Below, one piece after another: positions 5,635 through 45,883 of a stretch of 64,000 bases of DNA (its first letter is position 1; each line of letters begins with the position of its first letter). Both the position numbers and the translations under genes were made by a program. This stretch comes from Escherichia coli (lineage in GTDB: Bacteria > Pseudomonadota > Gammaproteobacteria > Enterobacterales > Enterobacteriaceae). The stretch lies in the NCBI RefSeq assembly GCF_003018235.1, contig NZ_CP027439.1; one strand, written 5' to 3'. The notes below the pieces were generated by a model. It was not told the DNA's origin. It saw only the letters and a program-made list of their open reading frames with translations, and ran no database searches.

Positions 5635-6069
5635 ATGAAAACTGAACTGACCCTGAATGTATTACAGACCATGAACGCACAGGAATATGAAGATATCCGG
5701 GCTGCCGGAAGTGATGAACGCCGTGAGCTGACTCACGCCGTGATGCGGGAGCTGGATGCGCCGGATAACTGGACGATGAACGGCGAGTACGGCAGCGAGT
5801 TTGGCGGCTTTTTCCCCGTCCAGGTCCGTTTCACGCCTGCCCACGAACGTTTTCACCTGGCGTTATGTTCACCGGGCGATGTCTCTCAGGTCTGGGTGCT
5901 GGTTCTGGTGAATGCCGGTGGTGAGCCGTTTGCGGTGGTTCAGGTACAGCGGCGGTTTGCACCGGAAGCCGTCAGCCATTCACTGGCACTGGCGGCGTCA
6001 CTGGATACGCAGGGGTACAGCGTTAACGACATCATCCATATCCTGATGGCGGAAGGAGGTCAGGTATGA
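5635..6069 (+). CDS. psiB: Plasmid SOS inhibition protein B
   Basis: 144-aa product starting [25 protein letters not shown], matching PsiB in length and sequence. Confidence 0.9.
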
Positions 6070-6785
6070 GCGTACGTTCACAGGCACTGGTTCCCCTCAG
6101 CACAGAGCAACAGGCCGCATGGCGGGCGGTGGCGGAGACAGAAAAACGCCGCCATCAGGGTAACACGCTGGCGGAATATCCGTATGCGGGGGCGTTTTTC
6201 CGCTGTCTGAACGGAAGCCGCAGGATATCGCTGTCTGACCTGCGATTTTTCATGCCGTCCCTGACCGCAGAAGAACTGCACGGCAACCGTCTTCAGTGGC
6301 TGTATGCAGTCGATGTGCTGATTGAAACACAGGGCGAGGTCTGCCTCCTTCCCCTTCCCGGTGATGCAGCAGAGCGGTTGTTTCCGTCGGTGCGGTTTCG
6401 TGTCAGGGAGCGCAGTCGCCATAAATCCGCGCTGGTCATGCAGAAGTACAGCCGCCAGCAGGCACGGGAGGCAGAGCAGAAAGCCCGTGCGTACCAGGCG
6501 CTGGTCGCTCAGGCTGAAATCGAACTGGCATTCCATTCGCCGGAAACAGTCGGAAGCTGGCATGCACGCTGGAGTGACCGGGTGGCAGAGCATGACCTGG
6601 AAACCCTGTTCTGGCAGTGGGGCGAGCGTTTTCCGTCACTGGCCGGAATGGAACGCTGGCAGTGGCAGGATATGCCGTTCTGGCAGGTTATTGCGGAAGC
6701 CAGTCTTGCAGCAAGAGAGGCCGGTCACGCTGTCCGTGAGATGGAGCGGTGGATGGTGCCGAACAAACTCCGGGAGGCTGCGTGA
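6066..6785 (+). CDS. psiA: Plasmid SOS inhibition protein A
   Basis: 239 aa, start overlaps the psiB stop (ATGA); conserved psiB-psiA operon arrangement. Confidence 0.85.
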
Positions 6786-6929
6786 TGCGGCAACAATCAC
6801 ACAGATTACCCGTAAACAGCCTGAATGAGCGGGTTATTTTCAGGAAAAGTGAGTGTGGTCAGCGTGCAGGGATATGGGCTATGATGTGCCCGGCGCTTGA
6901 GGCTTTCTGCCTCATGACGTGAAGGTGGT

Positions 6930-7010
6930 TTGTTGCCGTGTTGTGTGGCAGAAAGAAGATAGCCCCGTAGTAAGTTAATTTTCATTAACCACCACGAGGC
7001 ATCCCTATGT
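6930..7010 (-). ncRNA. sok: Sok/FlmB-like antisense RNA of the hok-type killer locus (approximate position)
   Basis: Placed from the hok/sok paradigm: antisense to the leader and mok start upstream of hok. No promoter or ends were mapped. Confidence 0.3.
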
Positions 7011-7219
7011 CTAGTCCACATCAGGATAGCCTCTTACCGCGCTTTGCGCAAGGAGAAGAAGGCCATGAAACTACCACGAAGTTCCCTTGTCTGGTGTGTG
7101 TTGATCGTGTGTCTCACACTGTTGATATTCACTTATCTGACACGAAAATCGCTGTGCGAGATTCGTTACAGAGACGGACACAGGGAGGTGGCGGCTTTCA
7201 TGGCTTACGAATCCGGTAA
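7007..7219 (+). CDS. mok: Mok/FlmC-like overlapping reading frame (modulation of killing)
   Basis: 70-aa ORF overlapping hok in a different frame, as in hok/sok and flm loci. Confidence 0.6.
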
Positions 7220-7223
7220 GTAG
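7065..7223 (+). CDS. hok: Hok/FlmA-family type I toxin
   Basis: 52-aa peptide [52 protein letters not shown], typical Hok/Gef family; followed by GC-rich hairpins (fbi/terminator-like) at 7225..7330. Confidence 0.88.
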
Positions 7224-7479
7224 CAACCTGGAGGCGGGCGCAGGCCCGCCTTTTCAGGACTGATGCTGGTCTGACTACTGAAGCGCCTTTATAAAGGGGC
7301 TGCTGGTTCGCTGGTAGCCCCTTTCTCCTTGCTGATGTTGTACGGGCATGAACAACCTGACTTCAGGAAGATCGTTTCCCTTCAGGAACGGGGATGAACG
7401 CGCGCCTGCGGCGCCCGTTCTTTTCCCCCGCCTTCTCTGGTTATGGCCTGTCAGAAATCACATCACCTTCCCTGTGATT

Positions 7480-8125
7480 ATTCTCTTTTTCTTCCTGCTC
7501 TGATTCTGACTACTGCAGTGTTGTCCTGTCTGCTAGGCGCACCTTCGGCTCCCGGCTGCCTGGCGGCATCCGGTCGTCAGGCCCGACTCCGACAGGCAGC
7601 TGCTGGCGCACCTGCCAGTCTCCGCCGAACCCGCTGGCGCGGTTTCGGGCTGTCGCTACGGTCCGATGCGTGAAAACCACAGGCTTGCAGCGACCGTTCC
7701 GGTCGCGCCGCCTCTGTCGCGCCGTAGCCTGCGCTCCCGGCATCCCGGCAAAAGGCCGCCGGGATGTAAGGGGCAACGCCGTTTCGCAAACCGCGCTTCA
7801 CGTCGTTGCGGCGGGTCCCTGCCCGTTGTTGTGTCCGGTGCCATTCACCTGTTTAAGCCCCTGTCGCCGGGGGCTGATACAGCCACAACCTGCCGCACTG
7901 ACTGTCCAGGGTAAATGAACAGCCCACAAAATTTTTTACCCAAAACCCGGTAAAAAATTTTGCGTTCTGCCCAGGACAGGTGCGTCAGGCCGTGGCAGTG
8001 ATGCCCCTTGCGGCGAAGGTTCTCAAACAGGTGATGGTTAATACCGGAGGGAACAAAAGGCAGGTCCCCGCAAAACGTCAAAACCGCGGCTCCCGAAACT
8101 CAACAGATGATGGGGGCTGAAAACC
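7480..8125 (+). promoter_or_regulatory. Frpo/ssi-like structured repeat, copy B, upstream of the orf95-like gene
   Basis: Paralogue of 2110..2700 with long identical blocks (7683..7897, 7985..8125). Hairpin 7925..7964 (cacaaaattttttacc/ggtaaaaaattttgcg) carries compensatory changes relative to copy A. Confidence 0.5.
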
Positions 8126-9660: not shown

Positions 9661-10170
9661 TTAATTGTTCTGCACGCTGTTAATTTCCGGAAGTGATTTC
9701 TTCGTGGTCGGAACCTGGATGCCTTTACTGCTCTTTATCCCGGTATAAATCCGGTAAACCTCTGATGCGTAGGCAAGACGTCTCTGGTTCTGGCGTTCGG
9801 TCTTCCTGAATCCAGCATTGTATGCACCAACGGCCTCCCAGGAGACGCCCCATTTTTTAAAGGCTATTGCCAGATAATAAGCACCGGTATAAATGTTCAT
9901 GCAGGGATCTGTTGTCAGATGTTCCGGCTTAATTCCATAGCGGGCCAGTTCGTTAAAATGCTGGGAATCTACCTGCATCAGTCCGCTGCCATATCCCGTT
10001 ACCGGATTAATACCGATGGCATTAACCCGGTAACGGGATTCTTTCCATGATATTGCTCTCAGTAAATCAGGATCTATTTTGTAATCCCGGCCTGCAAGAT
10101 CAAAGCAATCAGTGGCATGGCAGATCTCATTTATAAACATCAGGCAGATGGCTAACATCCATTTTTTCAT
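9661..10170 (-). CDS. Lytic transglycosylase (orf169 / gene 19 family, VirB1-like)
   Basis: 169 aa with signal peptide [12 protein letters not shown] and transglycosylase motifs ([24 protein letters not shown]); RBS AGGTGG. Confidence 0.85.
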
Positions 10171-10239
10171 TTTTCCACCTCTGGTGACTTTATCCGTAAA
10201 TAATTTAACCCACTCCACAAAAAGGCTCAACAGGTTGGT

Positions 10240-10535
10240 GGTTCTCACCACCAAAAGCACCACACCCCACGCAAAAACAAGTTTTTGCTGATTTTTCTTT
10301 ATAAATAGAGAGTTATGAAAAATTAGTTTCTCTTACTCTCTTTATGATATTTAAAAAAGCGGTGGTACTGACTATTTTTATAAAAAACATTATTTTATAT
10401 TAGGGGCGCTGCTAGCGGCGCGGTGTGTTTTTTTATAGGATAACGCCAGGGGCGCTGCTAGCGGTGCGTCCCTGTTTGCATTATGAATTTTAGTGTTTCG
10501 AAATTAACTTTATTTTATGTTCAAAAAAGGTAATC
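10240..10535. other. oriT: nic region, inverted repeats and direct repeats consistent with TraM binding sites
   Basis: Minus strand reads GGTGGTGAGAACCACC...TTTGCGTGGGGTGTGGTGCTTTTGGTGG (F-type nic motif, nick near 10261/10262); direct repeats GGGGCGCTGCTAGCGG at ~10403 and ~10451; AT-rich tracts. Confidence 0.8.
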
Positions 10536-10923: not shown

Positions 10924-11039
10924 AAGAAATTTGACTTCGTTCAAATATCAGAGTTTTTATGATTTAAAAGGGTGACAGTACGAAAGATAATTAGTATATT
11001 AATTACGTGGTTAATGCCACGTTAAAATTTGAATTTGAA

Positions 11040-11115
11040 AATCGCCGATGCAGGGAGTTCACGTCTCCCTGCATCGACTGTCCATAGAATCCTTTGTGAG
11101 GAGGTTCCTATGTAT
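11040..11115 (-). ncRNA. finP: FinP-like antisense RNA opposite the traJ leader (approximate)
   Basis: Stem-loop GATGCAGGGAG...CTCCCTGCATC (11047..11075) plus a second stem spanning the traJ RBS and start; position follows the FinOP paradigm. Ends not mapped. Confidence 0.4.
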
Positions 11116-11799
11116 CCGATGGATCGTATTCAACAAAAACATGCTCGTCAAATAGATCTGCTGGAAAATCTGACGGCAGTTATTCAGGATTATCCAAATC
11201 CAGCCTGTATCAGGGACGAAACTGGAAAATTTATTTTTTGCAATACGCTGTTTCATGAGTCATTTCTTACACAAGATCAAAGTGCTGAAAAATGGCTTCT
11301 GTCGCAGAGAGATTTTTGTGAATTGATCTCTGTCACAGAGATGGAAGCATACAGGAATGAGCATACGCATCTTAATCTTGTAGAGGATGTTTTTATTCAG
11401 AACAGATTCTGGACAATATCTATTCAGTCATTTCTTAATGGACACAGAAATATCATTCTGTGGCAATTTTATGATGCTGCTCATGTTCGTCATAAAGACA
11501 GTTATAATCAAAAAACGATTGTCAGTGATGATATCAGAAATATAATCAGAAGAATGAGTGATGATTCTTCTGTATCATCATATGTAAATGATGTCTTTTA
11601 CTTATATAGCACCGGAATCAGTCATAATGCTATAGCAAGAATATTAAACATATCCATCTCCACATCAAAGAAACACGCGTCTCTGATATGCGACTACTTC
11701 TCTGTTTCTAATAAAGATGAGTTAATCATCTTACTCTACAATAAAAAGTTTATTCATTATTTGTACGAGAAGGCTATGTGTATCATAAATACGCGTTAA
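11110..11799 (+). CDS. traJ: Transfer operon activator TraJ
   Basis: 229 aa from ATG at 11110 with RBS GAGGAGG; lies between traM and traY. Confidence 0.8.
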   Translation: MYPMDRIQQKHARQIDLLENLTAVIQDYPNPACIRDETGKFIFCNTLFHESFLTQDQSAEKWLLSQRDFCELISVTEMEAYRNEHTHLNLVEDVFIQNRFWTISIQSFLNGHRNIILWQFYDAAHVRHKDSYNQKTIVSDDIRNIIRRMSDDSSVSSYVNDVFYLYSTGISHNAIARILNISISTSKKHASLICDYFSVSNKDELIILLYNKKFIHYLYEKAMCIINTR

Positions 11800-30082: not shown

Positions 30083-32904
30083 ATGAAGTTTATGTGATTG
30101 CCGGTGGTGAGTGGTTGCGGAATAACCTGAACGCCATTGCCGCTTTTATGGGAACCAGGACGTGGGATTCCATTGAAAAAATTGCGCTCACATTGTCTGT
30201 TCTCGCGGTGGCCGTGATGTGGGTACAGCGGCACAACGTGATGGATTTGCTGGGCTGGGTGGCCGTGTTTGTGCTTATCAGCCTGCTGGTTAATGTCCGC
30301 ACATCGGTGCAGATTATTGATAACAGTGACCTGGTCAAAGTTCACCGGGTGGATAATGTGCCGGTCGGACTGGCGATGCCACTTTCACTGACGACCCGTA
30401 TCGGGCATGCAATGGTGGCCAGTTACGAGATGATCTTCACGCAACCGGACAGTGTCACCTACAGCAAAACGGGGATGCTGTTTGGCGCAGAACTGGTATC
30501 AAAAAGCACCGACTTTTTGTCCCGGAATCCGGAAATCGCCAATCTTTTCCAGGATTATGTGCAGAACTGCGTGATGGGGGATATTTACCTGAACCACAAA
30601 TATACGCTGGAGGAGCTGATGGCCTCCGCTGATCCCTACACGCTGATTTTTTCCCGCCCCAGCCCGCTGCGGGGCGTTTATGACAGCAATAATAATTTCG
30701 TAACCTGTAAGGACGCTTCGGTTTCGCTGAAAGACAAGCTGAATCTGGACACACAGAGTGGCGGAAAAACCTGGCATTATTATGCCCAGCAGCTATTTGG
30801 CGGACGCCCTGATCCTAACCTGCTGTTCAGTACGCTGATTGGCGACAGTTACAGTTACTTCTATGGCTCAAGTAAATCAGCCAGCCAGATCATCCGCCAG
30901 AATGTCACCATCAATGCGCTGAAGGAGGGGATCACCAGTTATGCCGCACGTAATGGTGATTCGGCCAGCCTGGTGAATCTGGCCACCACATCATCGATGG
31001 AGAAGCAACGTCTGGCACATGTCTCCATCGGTCATGTGGCGATGCGGACACTGCCCATGACGCAGACCATCCTGACGGGGATCGCCATCGGTATTTTCCC
31101 GCTCCTGGTACTGGCGGCTGTCTTCAACAAACTGACGCTGTCCGTCCTGAAAGGCTATGTGTTTGCCCTGATGTGGTTGCAGTCATGGCCAATGTTGTAC
31201 GCCATTCTGAACAGCGCCATGACATTTTATGCAAAGCAGAATGGTGCACCGGTGGTGCTCTCGGAAATTTCACAGATACAGCTGAAATACTCCGATCTGG
31301 CTTCCACTGCCGGGTATCTTTCCATGATGATCCCGCCATTATCCTGGATGATGGTCAGGGGGCTCGGGGCAGGATTTTCCAGTGTGTACAGCCATTTCGC
31401 TTCCTCTGCTATCAGCCCGACCGCCAGTGCAGCAGGCAGTGTGGTTGACGGTAATTACTCCTACGGCAACATGCAGACGGAGAACGTTAACGGCTTCAGC
31501 TGGAGCACCAACAGCACCACGTCGTTTGGTCAGATGATGTACCAGACCGGCAGTGGCGCAACCGCCACACAGACCCGTGACGGTAATATGGTGATGGATG
31601 CAAGCGGAGCGATGTCCCGGTTACCGGTCGGCATCAATGCAACGCGTCAGATTGCGGCGGCACAACAGGAAATGGCCCGGGAAGCATCGAACAGAGCAGA
31701 AAGTGCCCTGCATGGGTTCAGCAGCAGTATTGCCAGTGCCTGGAACACGCTCAGTCAGTTTGGTTCTAACCGGGGGAGCAGTGATTCTGTCACCGGTGGT
31801 GCTGACAGCACGATGAGTGCTCAGGACTCCATGATGGCCAGCCGTATGCGCAGTGCAGTGGAAAGCTATGCGAAGGCGCATAATATCAGTAATGAGCAGG
31901 CGACTCAGGAACTGGCATCAACAAGTACCAGGCTATCTGGTGGAATGTATGCTGATGCTCATGCTGAATGGGGGGTTAAACCTAAAATTCTTGGTGTTGG
32001 TGGTGGGGTAGGCATCAGAGGTGGATTTAAGGGGAGCCTGGATGCAACGGATGATGACTCACATTCAGCAAGTAGTGGCAGCAGGGCTACCCATGATGCT
32101 CGCCATGATATCGATGCTAAAGCCAGTAAGGACTTTAAAGAGGCCAGCGATTACTTTACCAGTCGCAAGGTCAGTGAATCCGGCAGCCATACGGACAATA
32201 ATGCCGATTCCCGTGTGGACCAGCTGTCTGCAGCCCTGAACTCAGCAAAACAGAGTTACGACCAGTACACGACGAATATGACCCGCAGCCATGAATATGC
32301 TGAAATGGCATCCCGTACTGAAAGCATGAGTGGGCAGATGAGTGAAGACCTGTCGCAACAGTTTGCACAGTATGTGATGAAACACGCGCCGCAGGATGCC
32401 GAAGCTATTCTGACAAACACCAGTTCACCGGAGATTGCAGAACGCCGTCGGGCGATGGCATGGTCTTTTGTTCAGGAACAGGTGCAGCCTGGTGTTGATA
32501 ATGCCTGGCGTGAATCCCGTGGGGATATTGGTAAAGGAATGGAGAGCGTACCTTCGGGTGGTGGCAGCCAGGATATTATTGCTGACCATCAGGGGCATCA
32601 GGCCATTATTGATCAAAGAACGCAGGACAGTAATATCCGTAATGATGTAAAACATCAGGTTGATAATATGGTCACAGAATATAAAGGGAATATCGGAGAT
32701 ACTCAGAATAGTATTCATGGCGAAGAAAATATTGTAGACAGACAATATTCAGAGTTAAAAAATAATCACAAACAGGAAGAAATTCAACAAAACAACAGAT
32801 ATAATGAAGAAAATAAACGACAGAAATTAATGCCAACACCGTCTGAAGATGCGTTAAAACAGATGGTGGATGATAAGAAAGAACGATTGAAGGGGCCATT
32901 ATGA
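30079..32904 (+). CDS. traG: TraG (mating-pair stabilisation / entry exclusion)
   Basis: 941 aa, polytopic N-terminal domain. Confidence 0.92.
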   Translation: MNEVYVIAGGEWLRNNLNAIAAFMGTRTWDSIEKIALTLSVLAVAVMWVQRHNVMDLLGWVAVFVLISLLVNVRTSVQIIDNSDLVKVHRVDNVPVGLAMPLSLTTRIGHAMVASYEMIFTQPDSVTYSKTGMLFGAELVSKSTDFLSRNPEIANLFQDYVQNCVMGDIYLNHKYTLEELMASADPYTLIFSRPSPLRGVYDSNNNFVTCKDASVSLKDKLNLDTQSGGKTWHYYAQQLFGGRPDPNLLFSTLIGDSYSYFYGSSKSASQIIRQNVTINALKEGITSYAARNGDSASLVNLATTSSMEKQRLAHVSIGHVAMRTLPMTQTILTGIAIGIFPLLVLAAVFNKLTLSVLKGYVFALMWLQSWPMLYAILNSAMTFYAKQNGAPVVLSEISQIQLKYSDLASTAGYLSMMIPPLSWMMVRGLGAGFSSVYSHFASSAISPTASAAGSVVDGNYSYGNMQTENVNGFSWSTNSTTSFGQMMYQTGSGATATQTRDGNMVMDASGAMSRLPVGINATRQIAAAQQEMAREASNRAESALHGFSSSIASAWNTLSQFGSNRGSSDSVTGGADSTMSAQDSMMASRMRSAVESYAKAHNISNEQATQELASTSTRLSGGMYADAHAEWGVKPKILGVGGGVGIRGGFKGSLDATDDDSHSASSGSRATHDARHDIDAKASKDFKEASDYFTSRKVSESGSHTDNNADSRVDQLSAALNSAKQSYDQYTTNMTRSHEYAEMASRTESMSGQMSEDLSQQFAQYVMKHAPQDAEAILTNTSSPEIAERRRAMAWSFVQEQVQPGVDNAWRESRGDIGKGMESVPSGGGSQDIIADHQGHQAIIDQRTQDSNIRNDVKHQVDNMVTEYKGNIGDTQNSIHGEENIVDRQYSELKNNHKQEEIQQNNRYNEENKRQKLMPTPSEDALKQMVDDKKERLKGPL

Positions 32905-36570: not shown

Positions 36571-39500
36571 TGATGAGTATCGCGCAGGTCAGATCGGCCG
36601 GAAGTGCCGGTAACTATTATACCGACAAGGATAATTACTATGTGCTGGGCAGCATGGGAGAACGCTGGGCCGGCAGGGGGGCTGAACAGCTGGGACTGCA
36701 GGGCAGTGTCGATAAGGATGTTTTTACCCGTCTTCTGGAGGGAAGGCTGCCGGACGGAGCGGATCTAAGCCGCATGCAGGATGGCAGTAACAGGCATCGT
36801 CCCGGCTACGACCTGACCTTCTCCGCCCCCAAAAGTGTCTCCATGATGGCCATGTTAGGTGGCGATAAGCGCCTGATTGATGCACATAACCAGGCCGTGG
36901 ACTTTGCTGTTCGTCAGGTGGAGGCGCTGGCCTCCACACGGGTGATGACGGACGGACAGTCAGAAACGGTGCTGACCGGTAATCTGGTGATGGCACTGTT
37001 TAACCACGACACCAGTCGCGATCAGGAACCACAGTTACACACGCATGCGGTGGTGGCTAATGTCACGCAGCATAACGGCGAATGGAAGACACTGAGCAGT
37101 GACAAAGTGGGGAAAACGGGGTTCATTGAGAATGTGTACGCTAATCAGATTGCCTTTGGCAGGCTCTACCGGGAAAAACTGAAAGAGCAGGTTGAGGCGC
37201 TGGGCTATGAAACCGAAGTGGTGGGTAAGCACGGTATGTGGGAGATGCCGGGCGTACCGGTGGAGGCCTTTTCCGGACGCTCACAGGCAATCCGGGAGGC
37301 CGTCGGGGAAGATGCCTCGCTGAAATCCCGGGATGTGGCGGCACTGGATACGCGAAAATCCAAACAGCACGTCGATCCTGAAGTCAGAATGGCTGAATGG
37401 ATGCAGACGCTGAAGGAAACCGGGTTCGACATCCGGGCATATCGTGACGCGGCGGATCAGCGTGCGGAGACCCGCACGCAGGCGCCCGGGCCAGCTTCAC
37501 AGGACGGGCCGGATGTGCAGCAGGCGGTGACACAGGCGATTGCCGGATTAAGTGAACGAAAAGTGCAGTTCACGTATACGGATGTGCTGGCCAGGACAGT
37601 CGGCATACTGCCGCCGGAAAATGGTGTGATTGAACGGGCACGCGCCGGTATCGATGAGGCCATCAGCCGTGAGCAGCTTATCCCCCTCGATCGTGAGAAG
37701 GGGCTGTTCACGTCCGGGATTCATGTGCTCGATGAGCTGTCAGTCCGGGCGCTCAGTCGTGACATCATGAAACAGAACCGGGTGACCGTACATCCGGAGA
37801 AAAGTGTCCCCCGGACGGCCGGTTACAGCGATGCCGTCAGTGTTCTGGCACAGGATCGCCCGTCGCTGGCCATTGTGTCCGGGCAGGGCGGTGCTGCCGG
37901 GCAGCGTGAGCGGGTGGCTGAACTGGTCATGATGGCCCGGGAGCAGGGGCGGGAGGTGCAGATTATCGCTGCTGACCGTCGTTCGCAGATGAACCTGAAG
38001 CAGGATGAACGGCTGTCCGGTGAGCTGATAACCGGACGTCGTCAGCTGCAGGAGGGCATGACCTTCACACCGGGCAGTACCGTTATCGTTGACCAGGGCG
38101 AAAAACTCTCCCTGAAAGAGACGTTAACCCTGCTGGACGGTGCCGCACGTCATAACGTACAGGTCCTGATAACCGACAGCGGGCAGCGAACCGGTACAGG
38201 CAGTGCGCTGATGGCCATGAAGGATGCCGGGGTGAACACATATCGCTGGCAGGGGGGAGAACAGCGACCGGCCACCATCATCAGTGAACCGGACCGTAAT
38301 GTCCGCTATGCCCGGCTGGCAGGAGATTTTGCGGCCAGCGTGAAAGCCGGAGAAGAGAGCGTGGCACAGGTCAGCGGGGTACGGGAACAGGCCATACTGA
38401 CACAGGCCATTCGCAGTGAGCTGAAAACACAGGGCGTGCTCGGACACCCGGAGGTAACCATGACCGCCCTCTCACCGGTCTGGCTGGACAGCCGGAGCCG
38501 TTATCTGCGGGATATGTACCGTCCGGGGATGGTGATGGATCAGTGGAACCCGGAGACACGCAGTCATGACCGCTATGTTATCGACCGGGTGACGGCGCAG
38601 AGTCACAGCCTGACCCTGCGGGATGCGCAGGGTGAAACGCAGGTGGTGCGTATTTCCTCCCTGGACAGCAGCTGGTCGCTGTTCCGGCCGGAAAAAATGC
38701 CGGTGGCAGACGGCGAGCGTCTGAGGGTGACAGGGAAAATTCCCGGACTCCGCGTCTCCGGCGGTGACCGCCTGCAGGTGGCATCCGTCAGTGAAGATGC
38801 GATGACGGTTGTTGTGCCGGGGCGGGCTGAACCGGCCACCCTGCCTGTGGCTGATTCACCGTTCACGGCACTGAAGCTGGAGAATGGCTGGGTGGAAACG
38901 CCCGGGTATTCCGTCAGCGACAGTGCGACGGTTTTTGCCTCCGTCACACAGATGGCAATGGACAACGCCACCCTGAACGGTCTGGCCCGCAGCGGTCGTG
39001 ATGTCCGGCTGTATTCCTCTCTGGATGAAACCCGTACTGCGGAAAAACTTGCCCGCCATCCCTCCTTTACGGTGGTTTCTGAGCAGATAAAGACGCGGGC
39101 CGGTGAGACACCGCTGGAAACTGCTATCAGTCTGCAGAAAGCCGGGCTTCACACGCCGGCACAGCAGGCCATTCATCTGGCCCTTCCTGTGCTGGAAAGT
39201 AAAAACCTGGCCTTCAGCATGGTGGACCTGCTGACAGAGGCGAAGTCGTTTGCTGCAGAAGGAACCAGTTTTATCGACCTGGGAGGGGAAATCAATGCGC
39301 AGATAAAACGCGGTGATTTACTGTATGTGGATGTGGCAAAAGGCTATGGCACAGGCCTGCTGGTTTCCCGTGCGTCGTATGAGGCAGAAAAGAGCATTCT
39401 TCGCCATATTCTCGAAGGTAAGGAGGCGGTCACGCCGCTGATGGAGAGAGTACCTGGCGAACTCATGGAGAAACTGACATCAGGACAGCGCGCCGCCACC

Positions 39501-43356: not shown

Positions 43357-43569
43357 ATGAATGGATTCAGAAACAGTTCACGGAACGGTCAGGTCTGGCG
43401 TTACCAGCGTGCCGGCGGGCGGGCCGTTATTCTGGAGGTCAGTGGACGCTGGATGGAAGCGGCAGAAGCATGGCGACGGGCTGCCTGCATAGCTCCCCGG
43501 ACAGACTGGCAACAGTTTGCCCGGAAAAGGGCTGAACACTGCCACCGGCGCTGCCGGGGAAGGGTGTAA
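43357..43569 (+). CDS. Hypothetical small protein
   Basis: 70-aa ORF preceded by GGGAGGAG RBS; no recognisable motifs. Confidence 0.35.
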   Translation: MNGFRNSSRNGQVWRYQRAGGRAVILEVSGRWMEAAEAWRRAACIAPRTDWQQFARKRAEHCHRRCRGRV

Positions 43570-43814
43570 CGAAAAAAGCAGCCTTCATTACACCAGAAGT
43601 CAGAAGGCTGAAAGGAGTTTATGAGATTTGCTTTTTTTAATATCCGGTCGGGCAGTATGACCGGACAGTTCTGAGTAGCACAGAGTTTTTTCCGTATTAA
43701 GTCGTGATTTTATATTTTGTGATTTATTTCACAAAATAAGGTGTTATTCATTGTGTGCTGCAATATTCAGGATGCCTGAAATACAGGTGCCATTTATCTG
43801 ATATGGAGAATAAC

Positions 43815-45764: not shown

Positions 45765-45855
45765 CAGGAGCCAGAAAAGTGAAAACCCCGATAATCTTCT
45801 TTAACTTTGGCGAGTGAGAAAGATTATCGGGGCTAACAAGAAACTGCATAGAAGC
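45765..45855 (-). ncRNA. copA: CopA (inc) antisense RNA of the repA1 leader (approximate ends)
   Basis: Long imperfect hairpin 45786..45832 (ccccgataatctt...aagattatcgggg) with a loop containing GCGCCAAAG on the minus strand, matching the CopA/CopT stem-loop II arrangement between copB and tap. Confidence 0.5.
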
Positions 45856-45883
45856 TGTTGCTCTATGCGGGGAGTATAGTTAT

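Follow-up and report, generated by a model that had tools for sequence, protein, structure and literature searches.

The Hok-like reading frame found directly after psiA raises the question of whether this plasmid carries a complete hok/mok/sok type I toxin-antitoxin module in its leading region and, if it does, how far the module extends and on which strand its antisense RNA is encoded. An earlier note on the same DNA had recognised a module of this type. We examined the whole stretch of DNA, 64,000 nucleotides, referred to as the window herein. Judged from its sequence elements, we put the probability at roughly 95% that the locus is an intact R1/R100-allele hok/mok/sok cassette for post-segregational killing, situated in the leading region of an IncF plasmid. 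The positions of its elements and of the surrounding landmarks are collected in Table 1.

Table 1. Elements of the hok/mok/sok cassette and plasmid landmarks, by position in the window
Feature	Position	Strand	Basis or description
psiA	6066-6785		ORF directly upstream of the cassette; protein family match (PsiA)
hok/mok promoter, TGGTCA-18-TATGAT	6856-6885	+	promoter scan, 9/12 matches
Full-length hok mRNA	6892-7289 (+1 to +398)	+	R1 numbering
tac (translational activator), GGCGCUUGAG	6892-6901	+	MFE pairing partner 7278-7287
ucb / anti-SD box	6958-6968 (+67 to +77)	+	predicted to sequester the mok SD in the full-length mRNA
mok Shine-Dalgarno (SD), GAGG	6996-6999 (+105 to +108)	+	matches R1 G105/A106; invariant in the alignment
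Sok-target hairpin around the mok start codon	7001-7027	+	Rfam RF01794 consensus structure
mok ORF	7007-7219	+	70 aa, other frame, overlaps hok
Predicted Sok antisense RNA	7017-6954, about 64 nt	-	single-stranded 5' tail GGACUAGACAU, long hairpin, U-rich tail
Sok promoter	7023-7051	-	-35 TTGCGC (7051-7046), 17-nt spacer, -10 TATCCT (7028-7023)
hok ORF	7065-7223	+	ATG start, 52 aa membrane toxin
3' stem-loop ending the truncated hok mRNA	7227-7258 (core 7231-7252)	+	-24.6 kcal/mol, extended hairpin
fbi (fold-back inhibitory), CUGAAGCGCC	7278-7287	+	pairs with tac
Terminator-like hairpin and tail UUUCUCCUU	7293-7330 (stem 7293-7306 with 7311-7324)	+	-22.2 kcal/mol
F-type oriT nick motif, GCGTGGGGTGTGGTGCTTT	10254-10272	-	exact, single occurrence
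traJ 5' UTR/FinP	11005-11116		Rfam
CopA (IncFII replication control)	45777-45866	-	Rfam gathering-level match

Both reading frames named in the earlier note, the Hok-family peptide and the mok frame overlapping it, proved to be real. Hok matched Pfam HOK_GEF (PF01848) with an E value of 1.2e-21 and NCBIfam NF007279 at 126.4 bits (cut-off 73), and an SD sequence, AAGGAG, lies ahead of its ATG at 7050-7055. Mok matched Pfam DUF5431 (PF17496; E 2.6e-41) and NCBIfam NF010277, "modulator of post-segregation killing protein," at 151.6 bits (cut-off 110). Translation of hok depends on translation of mok. A tblastn search of the 64-kb window found no second Hok-family ORF of the srnB or pnd type.

The predicted hok promoter combines a weak -35 with a good -10 element, the latter ending 6 nt ahead of the mRNA +1 at 6892 and being kept as TATGAT/TATAAT in 10 of 10 homologues. 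We take the full-length mRNA to be 398 nt long, the length given in Gerdes-lab work, and the primary transcript may extend to the terminator-like hairpin, ending near 7330. Mutagenesis of R1 hok/Sok names the positions G4, C5, T6, G64, A70, G71, C72, C74, G105, A106, G345, and C358 (PMC9841398). With +1 at 6892, each of the 12 meets the expected base, so that from +1 to at least +358 the window copy is colinear with R1. Its likeness to R1 is read from these 12 named positions, together with R100. The start given in the earlier note, 6930, has to be moved upstream, since it leaves out the promoter, the mRNA start, tac, and the 5' hairpins; the functional unit spans ∼6856-7330, about 475 bp.

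Fold prediction for the 398-nt hok RNA gave -175.9 kcal/mol with a z score of -8.25. In this structure, tac and fbi form nine pairs, between mRNA nucleotides 1-7 and 9-10 and the 7278-7287 segment, with predicted probabilities of at least 0.996. We compared ten aligned homologues with identities of 80-100%, drawn from F and from E. coli, Salmonella, Klebsiella, and Enterobacter plasmids and including this window. The tac/fbi helix was invariant and 100% paired in all ten; since it never varies, it is supported by conservation and not by covariation. The fbi element is likewise invariant within a 3' UTR that is otherwise variable. The predicted pairs between the mok SD and ucb are G105-C75, G107-C73, G108-C72, and C109-G71, leaving A106 unpaired opposite C74, and in the full-length mRNA the predicted paired probability is 1.00 for G105, G107, and G108. 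The same arrangement, with its unpaired A106, explained the effects of A106G and C74T in R1 (PMC9841398). For the nascent RNA, the first 35 nt were predicted to form a local hairpin occupying tac (-13.7 kcal/mol), which is the published metastable structure of R1 hok mRNA (PMC9841398).

Upon forcing the open tac/ucb stem (U6-A70, C5-G71, and G4-C72), we found a cost of +12.2 kcal/mol in the 398-nt RNA compared with only +0.2 kcal/mol in a 361-nt RNA ending at 7252, and the tac/ucb probability rose from 0.000 to about 0.17. The unconstrained MFE structure of the 361-nt RNA does not contain the "open" tac/ucb fold of the literature; the open fold is isoenergetic with it, being 0.2 kcal/mol worse. 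The calculation reproduces the logic that 3' trimming licenses refolding, and the open form is not thereby the predicted minimum. The loop of the predicted Sok-target hairpin, UCUAGUCCA, holds a YUNR-type CUAG. For target loops of this type, a U-turn recognition model is established in the literature.

The earlier note had placed a Sok-type antisense RNA here by analogy, and a predicted Sok gene can now be given explicit coordinates opposite the mok translation initiation region. The literature length of Sok, 64 nt in Gerdes-lab work, was used together with the promoter position to set the predicted ends. Within the mok ORF, the -35 TTGC, the 17-nt spacing, and the A at position 2 and T at position 6 of the -10 element are kept in 10 of 10 homologues; a generic sigma-70 scan left this promoter below threshold, with 7/12 consensus matches. 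The predicted 64-nt RNA folds at -26.5 kcal/mol, and a 71-nt version folds at -27.8 kcal/mol (z -5.17). Its 5' tail is predicted to be unpaired and is complementary to the loop of the mok-AUG hairpin. This placement agrees with the definition of Sok as an RNA antisense to the mok translation initiation region (PMC9841398).

Of the GC hairpins that the earlier note had seen downstream of hok, both are present (7227-7258 and 7293-7324), although their roles would differ, one being the stem-loop of the truncated mRNA and the other terminator-like, with fbi sitting between them. The truncated, activatable hok mRNA would end near +361, that is, at 7252, where the 7231-7252 stem-loop would, by analogy with R1, block 3' exonucleases. 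R1 positions G345 and C358 map into its stem, and their mutation makes the truncated R1 RNA unstable (PMC9841398). The second hairpin with its UUUCUCCUU tail looks like a transcription terminator. It is preserved despite sequence changes in nine of the ten aligned homologues, the exception being RHB06, as judged by eye, and adding it to the folded RNA (439 nt) left the predicted tac/fbi pairing as before. A terminator scan flagged neither hairpin, since their T runs are short or interrupted. The two sites that the scan did call terminator-like, one within hok (7107-7119) and one at 7402-7414, were set aside as having no bearing on the module. We also observed that, in the stretch separating the 3' stem-loop from fbi, the window copy is short of a GC dinucleotide (7275/7276). 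The dinucleotide is present in six of the nine other aligned homologues, including F and R100, with other bases in the remaining three, and its absence does not affect the predicted tac/fbi pairing.

When the full-length structure derived from the window was laid over the ten homologues, 89.2% of the cells were paired, compared with 35-43% when the partners were slid by 1-3 columns, a comparison in which the structure is favoured over the slid controls by having been derived from one of the aligned sequences. Thirteen pairs were changed on both sides, a number reached in none of 500 shuffles; of these compensatory pairs, the 3' stem-loop contributes five and a hairpin within the hok coding sequence four. 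With the Hok and Mok ORFs, tac/fbi, the sequestered mok SD, and the 3' stem-loop all intact, the reading as a hok/mok/sok-type module is supported because every sequence-testable defining feature is present and intact.

The earlier note had proposed alignment to F flmA/flmB/flmC and to R1 hok/sok as a check. Aligned with the F module, the window module is 93.9% identical. The F cassette has the same architecture and the same position, psiB-psiA-flm followed by an Frpo1-like repeat and ORFs upstream of oriT. Its tac, fbi, SD sequences, and Sok-type promoter are identical to those of the window, and FlmA differs from the window Hok solely in having Y39 in place of H39. However, the antisense 5' tail and the target loop differ between the window and F flm (GGACUAGACAUAGGG against UGUCUAAGCAUGCAG), so we assign the window to the R1/R100 allele and not to the F allele. 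For R1 the comparison consists of the agreement at the 12 named positions, with R100 standing in for a direct alignment. R100 is identical at 470 of 477 positions (98.5%) over the 475-nt module, every base agreeing from +45 to the end of the 3' stem-loop, a span that includes the hok ORF, the mok ORF, and the Sok region. Besides being without the GC dinucleotide before fbi, the window departs from R100 at five bases: one substitution falls in the promoter spacer, one is G for A at +44, and the other three are in the 3' UTR/terminator. The R100 Hok is the same 52-aa peptide, the PGAP accession WP_001372321.1 is common to R100 and NZ_KY416992, and the R100 cassette is likewise placed after psiA. 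The systems srnB/srnC of F, pndA/pndB of R483, and chromosomal hok/gef share the Hok/Gef family and the mRNA folding logic but are much more divergent from the window cassette. A 601-nt query was 100% identical to NZ_KY416992, and the locus was matched in at least 5000 plasmid records. About 80% of the matches listed were conjugative, and most of those listed came from Escherichia, Klebsiella, Salmonella, and Shigella. The hok/mok/sok cassette of the window is already known and ordinary, and its sequence is not new.

What supports the window copy is its set of sequence elements, their capacity to pair, the conservation and covariation they show, and a near-identity to experimentally studied systems. 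On these grounds we propose that the weak promoter would yield a stable mok-hok mRNA whose 5' tac is held in a local hairpin while the RNA is nascent. In the complete RNA, tac would pair with fbi and the upstream anti-SD box would hold the mok SD, and because of these two interactions the full-length RNA should be neither translated nor bound by Sok. Slow 3' exonucleolytic trimming to the G+C stem-loop would remove fbi, whereupon the 5' end could refold, tac pairing with ucb, and expose the mok start region. In plasmid-carrying cells, short-lived Sok, made from the minus-strand promoter and spanning about 7017-6954, would pair with the mok start region via its 5' tail and block mok, which would block hok translation, and the duplex would be cut by RNase III. 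In plasmid-free cells, Sok would decay first, so that the reservoir of processed hok mRNA could be translated and the 52-aa Hok would damage the inner membrane, leading to cell death. For R1 hok/sok, this mechanism and post-segregational killing are experimentally documented (PMC9841398, PMC10899753), and imaging of single cells revealed that growth stops about 30 min after the plasmid is lost and that ghost cells then appear (PMC10899753). Sok transcription, 3' processing, RNase III cleavage, and killing at the window locus are attributed by analogy with the R1 and F literature. Hok toxicity and post-segregational killing are expected, the Hok peptide being identical to the R100 form and R1 hok/sok having been studied experimentally; we infer the same killing function because the window copy is near-identical to the tested R1 and F systems.

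The window derives from an IncF-type conjugative plasmid, and the placement of the cassette in the leading region, likewise claimed in the earlier note, stood up well. The F-type nick-region motif used for the search gave one match with 0 mismatches, where shuffled sequences averaged 0.01 matches. Located upstream of traM, the match overlaps the 5' end of a minus-strand ORF for an SLT transglycosylase (9661-10263). Since the motif is on the minus strand, we take this to be the transferred strand. The cassette, beginning after the psiA end at 6785, lies ∼3 kb from the nick, with oriT on one flank and the ssb/psi genes on the other, and belongs to the DNA transferred first; the label "leading region" is therefore correct. 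The gene order psiB-psiA-hok-...-SLT-traM-traJ is that of F and R100. Further Rfam gathering-level matches, all on the minus strand, were to the plasmid antisense RNAs AS-pc02 (43466-43651), AS-traI (39419-39495), and AS-traG (30798-30883). Downstream of the cassette, a G+C-rich spacer at 7330-7673 separates the hok terminator from an Frpo-like repeat. It contains the terminator-like hairpin at 7402-7414 and a 76-aa ORF (7443-7673) that drew no NCBIfam match and goes by "hypothetical protein" in NZ_KY416992.

This setting bears on the role for which the module is selected. The same module might act locally, guarding the leading region from deletion between Frpo-like repeats or aiding early establishment after entry. 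The cassette is flanked by direct repeats at 2257-2707 and 7674-8124, 5417 bp apart and sharing 217 nt at 98% identity followed by 197 nt at 86%, with ssb, a ParB-like gene, psiB, psiA, and hok enclosed between them. Their locations match those of Frpo2 and Frpo1, the single-strand promoters of F, and one of the repeats is predicted to fold strongly as ssDNA (minus strand 7660-8010, -100.5 kcal/mol, z -7.19). For F, Couturier et al. 2023 proposed that flmAB, located between Frpo1 and Frpo2, prevents loss of the segment by recombination (PMC9849209). Samuel et al. found toxin-antitoxin genes to be over-represented in leading regions (PMC11541004), and the occurrence of hok/Sok sequences in plasmid leading regions is credited to Samuel et al. 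2024 in a bioRxiv survey of Hok from 2026 (doi 10.1101/2025.08.07.668861). However, R1 hok/sok stabilises heterologous replicons whatever the context (PMC10899753), and the killing of deletion segregants is itself post-segregational killing, so a local role would be compatible with the general one. We consider a selected local role possible but rather unlikely, and we retain post-segregational killing as the reading of the cassette.

A second and still more doubtful idea, speculation built on geometry only, concerns strand asymmetry at entry. The transferred minus strand can template hok mRNA and not Sok, and the terminator scan found no terminator-like site between psiA and the hok promoter. 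With these two features, it is conceivable that read-through from the repeat at 2257-2707 could deliver mok-hok RNA to the recipient before the antitoxin, with fold-back and slow trimming serving as a timer. If this were true, recipients completing second-strand synthesis would survive the timer, and those whose establishment aborts would be killed. A paper on expression early in conjugation (PMC12672017) makes no mention of hok or flm. We regard this scenario as improbable.

It is very improbable that the window copy is a decayed or silenced relic without killing activity. Chromosomal hok loci of E. coli K-12 have been reported as decayed or silenced, the 3' UTR of the window copy differs slightly from those of R100 and F (three substitutions and the 2-nt deletion at 7275/7276), and the Hok given by PGAP is only 41 aa long, with GTG 7098 as its start. 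The short Hok is, however, an annotation choice, since NF007279 aligns residues 1-52 of 52. We observed no IS element or frameshift in the cassette; both ORFs are full length, the regulatory elements are intact and at their R1 positions, and the high predicted probability of tac/fbi pairing is retained. In addition, other plasmids carry exact (100%) copies of the sequence over 451-601 nt, and in at least 1444 plasmid records the identity is at least 99%. These observations argue for an intact cassette and against a relic.

Lastly, database labels at this locus need care. The Rfam family RF01794, "sok antitoxin (CssrC)," matched the plus strand at 6891-7067 with 88.9 bits (gathering score 59; E 1.6e-18). 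Taking this label at face value, as a 177-nt plus-strand antitoxin RNA, is almost certainly wrong, since the match runs along the sense leader from the hok mRNA 5' end through the hok AUG with no minus-strand match reported, whereas Sok is defined by being antisense to the mok initiation region and the conserved promoter and the hairpin with its U-rich tail sit on the minus strand. RF01794 models the sense hok/mok leader, not Sok, and its match supports conservation of the leader fold. The E value of this match and the number of matching plasmid records put the resemblance well outside chance. A minus-strand Rfam match to IRES_FGF1 (16.1 bits, E 0.82) was dismissed as chance. The 41-aa PGAP/RefSeq Hok (126-bp CDS, 7098-7223) recurs in NZ_KY416992, F, and R100; the literature Hok is the 52-aa peptide from ATG 7065, all of whose residues align to the NCBIfam model. 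A 71-aa minus-strand ORF (6806-7021) overlaps the Sok region and is called "protein sok" in some plasmid records. It had no match in NCBIfam, the only library scanned, and most likely represents an obsolete annotation of the RNA gene.

Taken together, automatic annotation misleads at this locus through the 41-aa Hok of PGAP, the sense-strand "sok" of Rfam, which would assign sok to the opposite strand and give it about 3 times its proper length, and the obsolete "protein sok" ORF. The complete module needs ∼475 bp (6856-7330), not the Hok ORF alone. While the cassette of the window matters little beyond its correct annotation, hok/mok/sok is the founding example of a type I toxin-antitoxin system and persists nearly unchanged in thousands of sequenced enterobacterial plasmids, and its site between recombinogenic Frpo-like repeats fits the published idea of leading-region protection.
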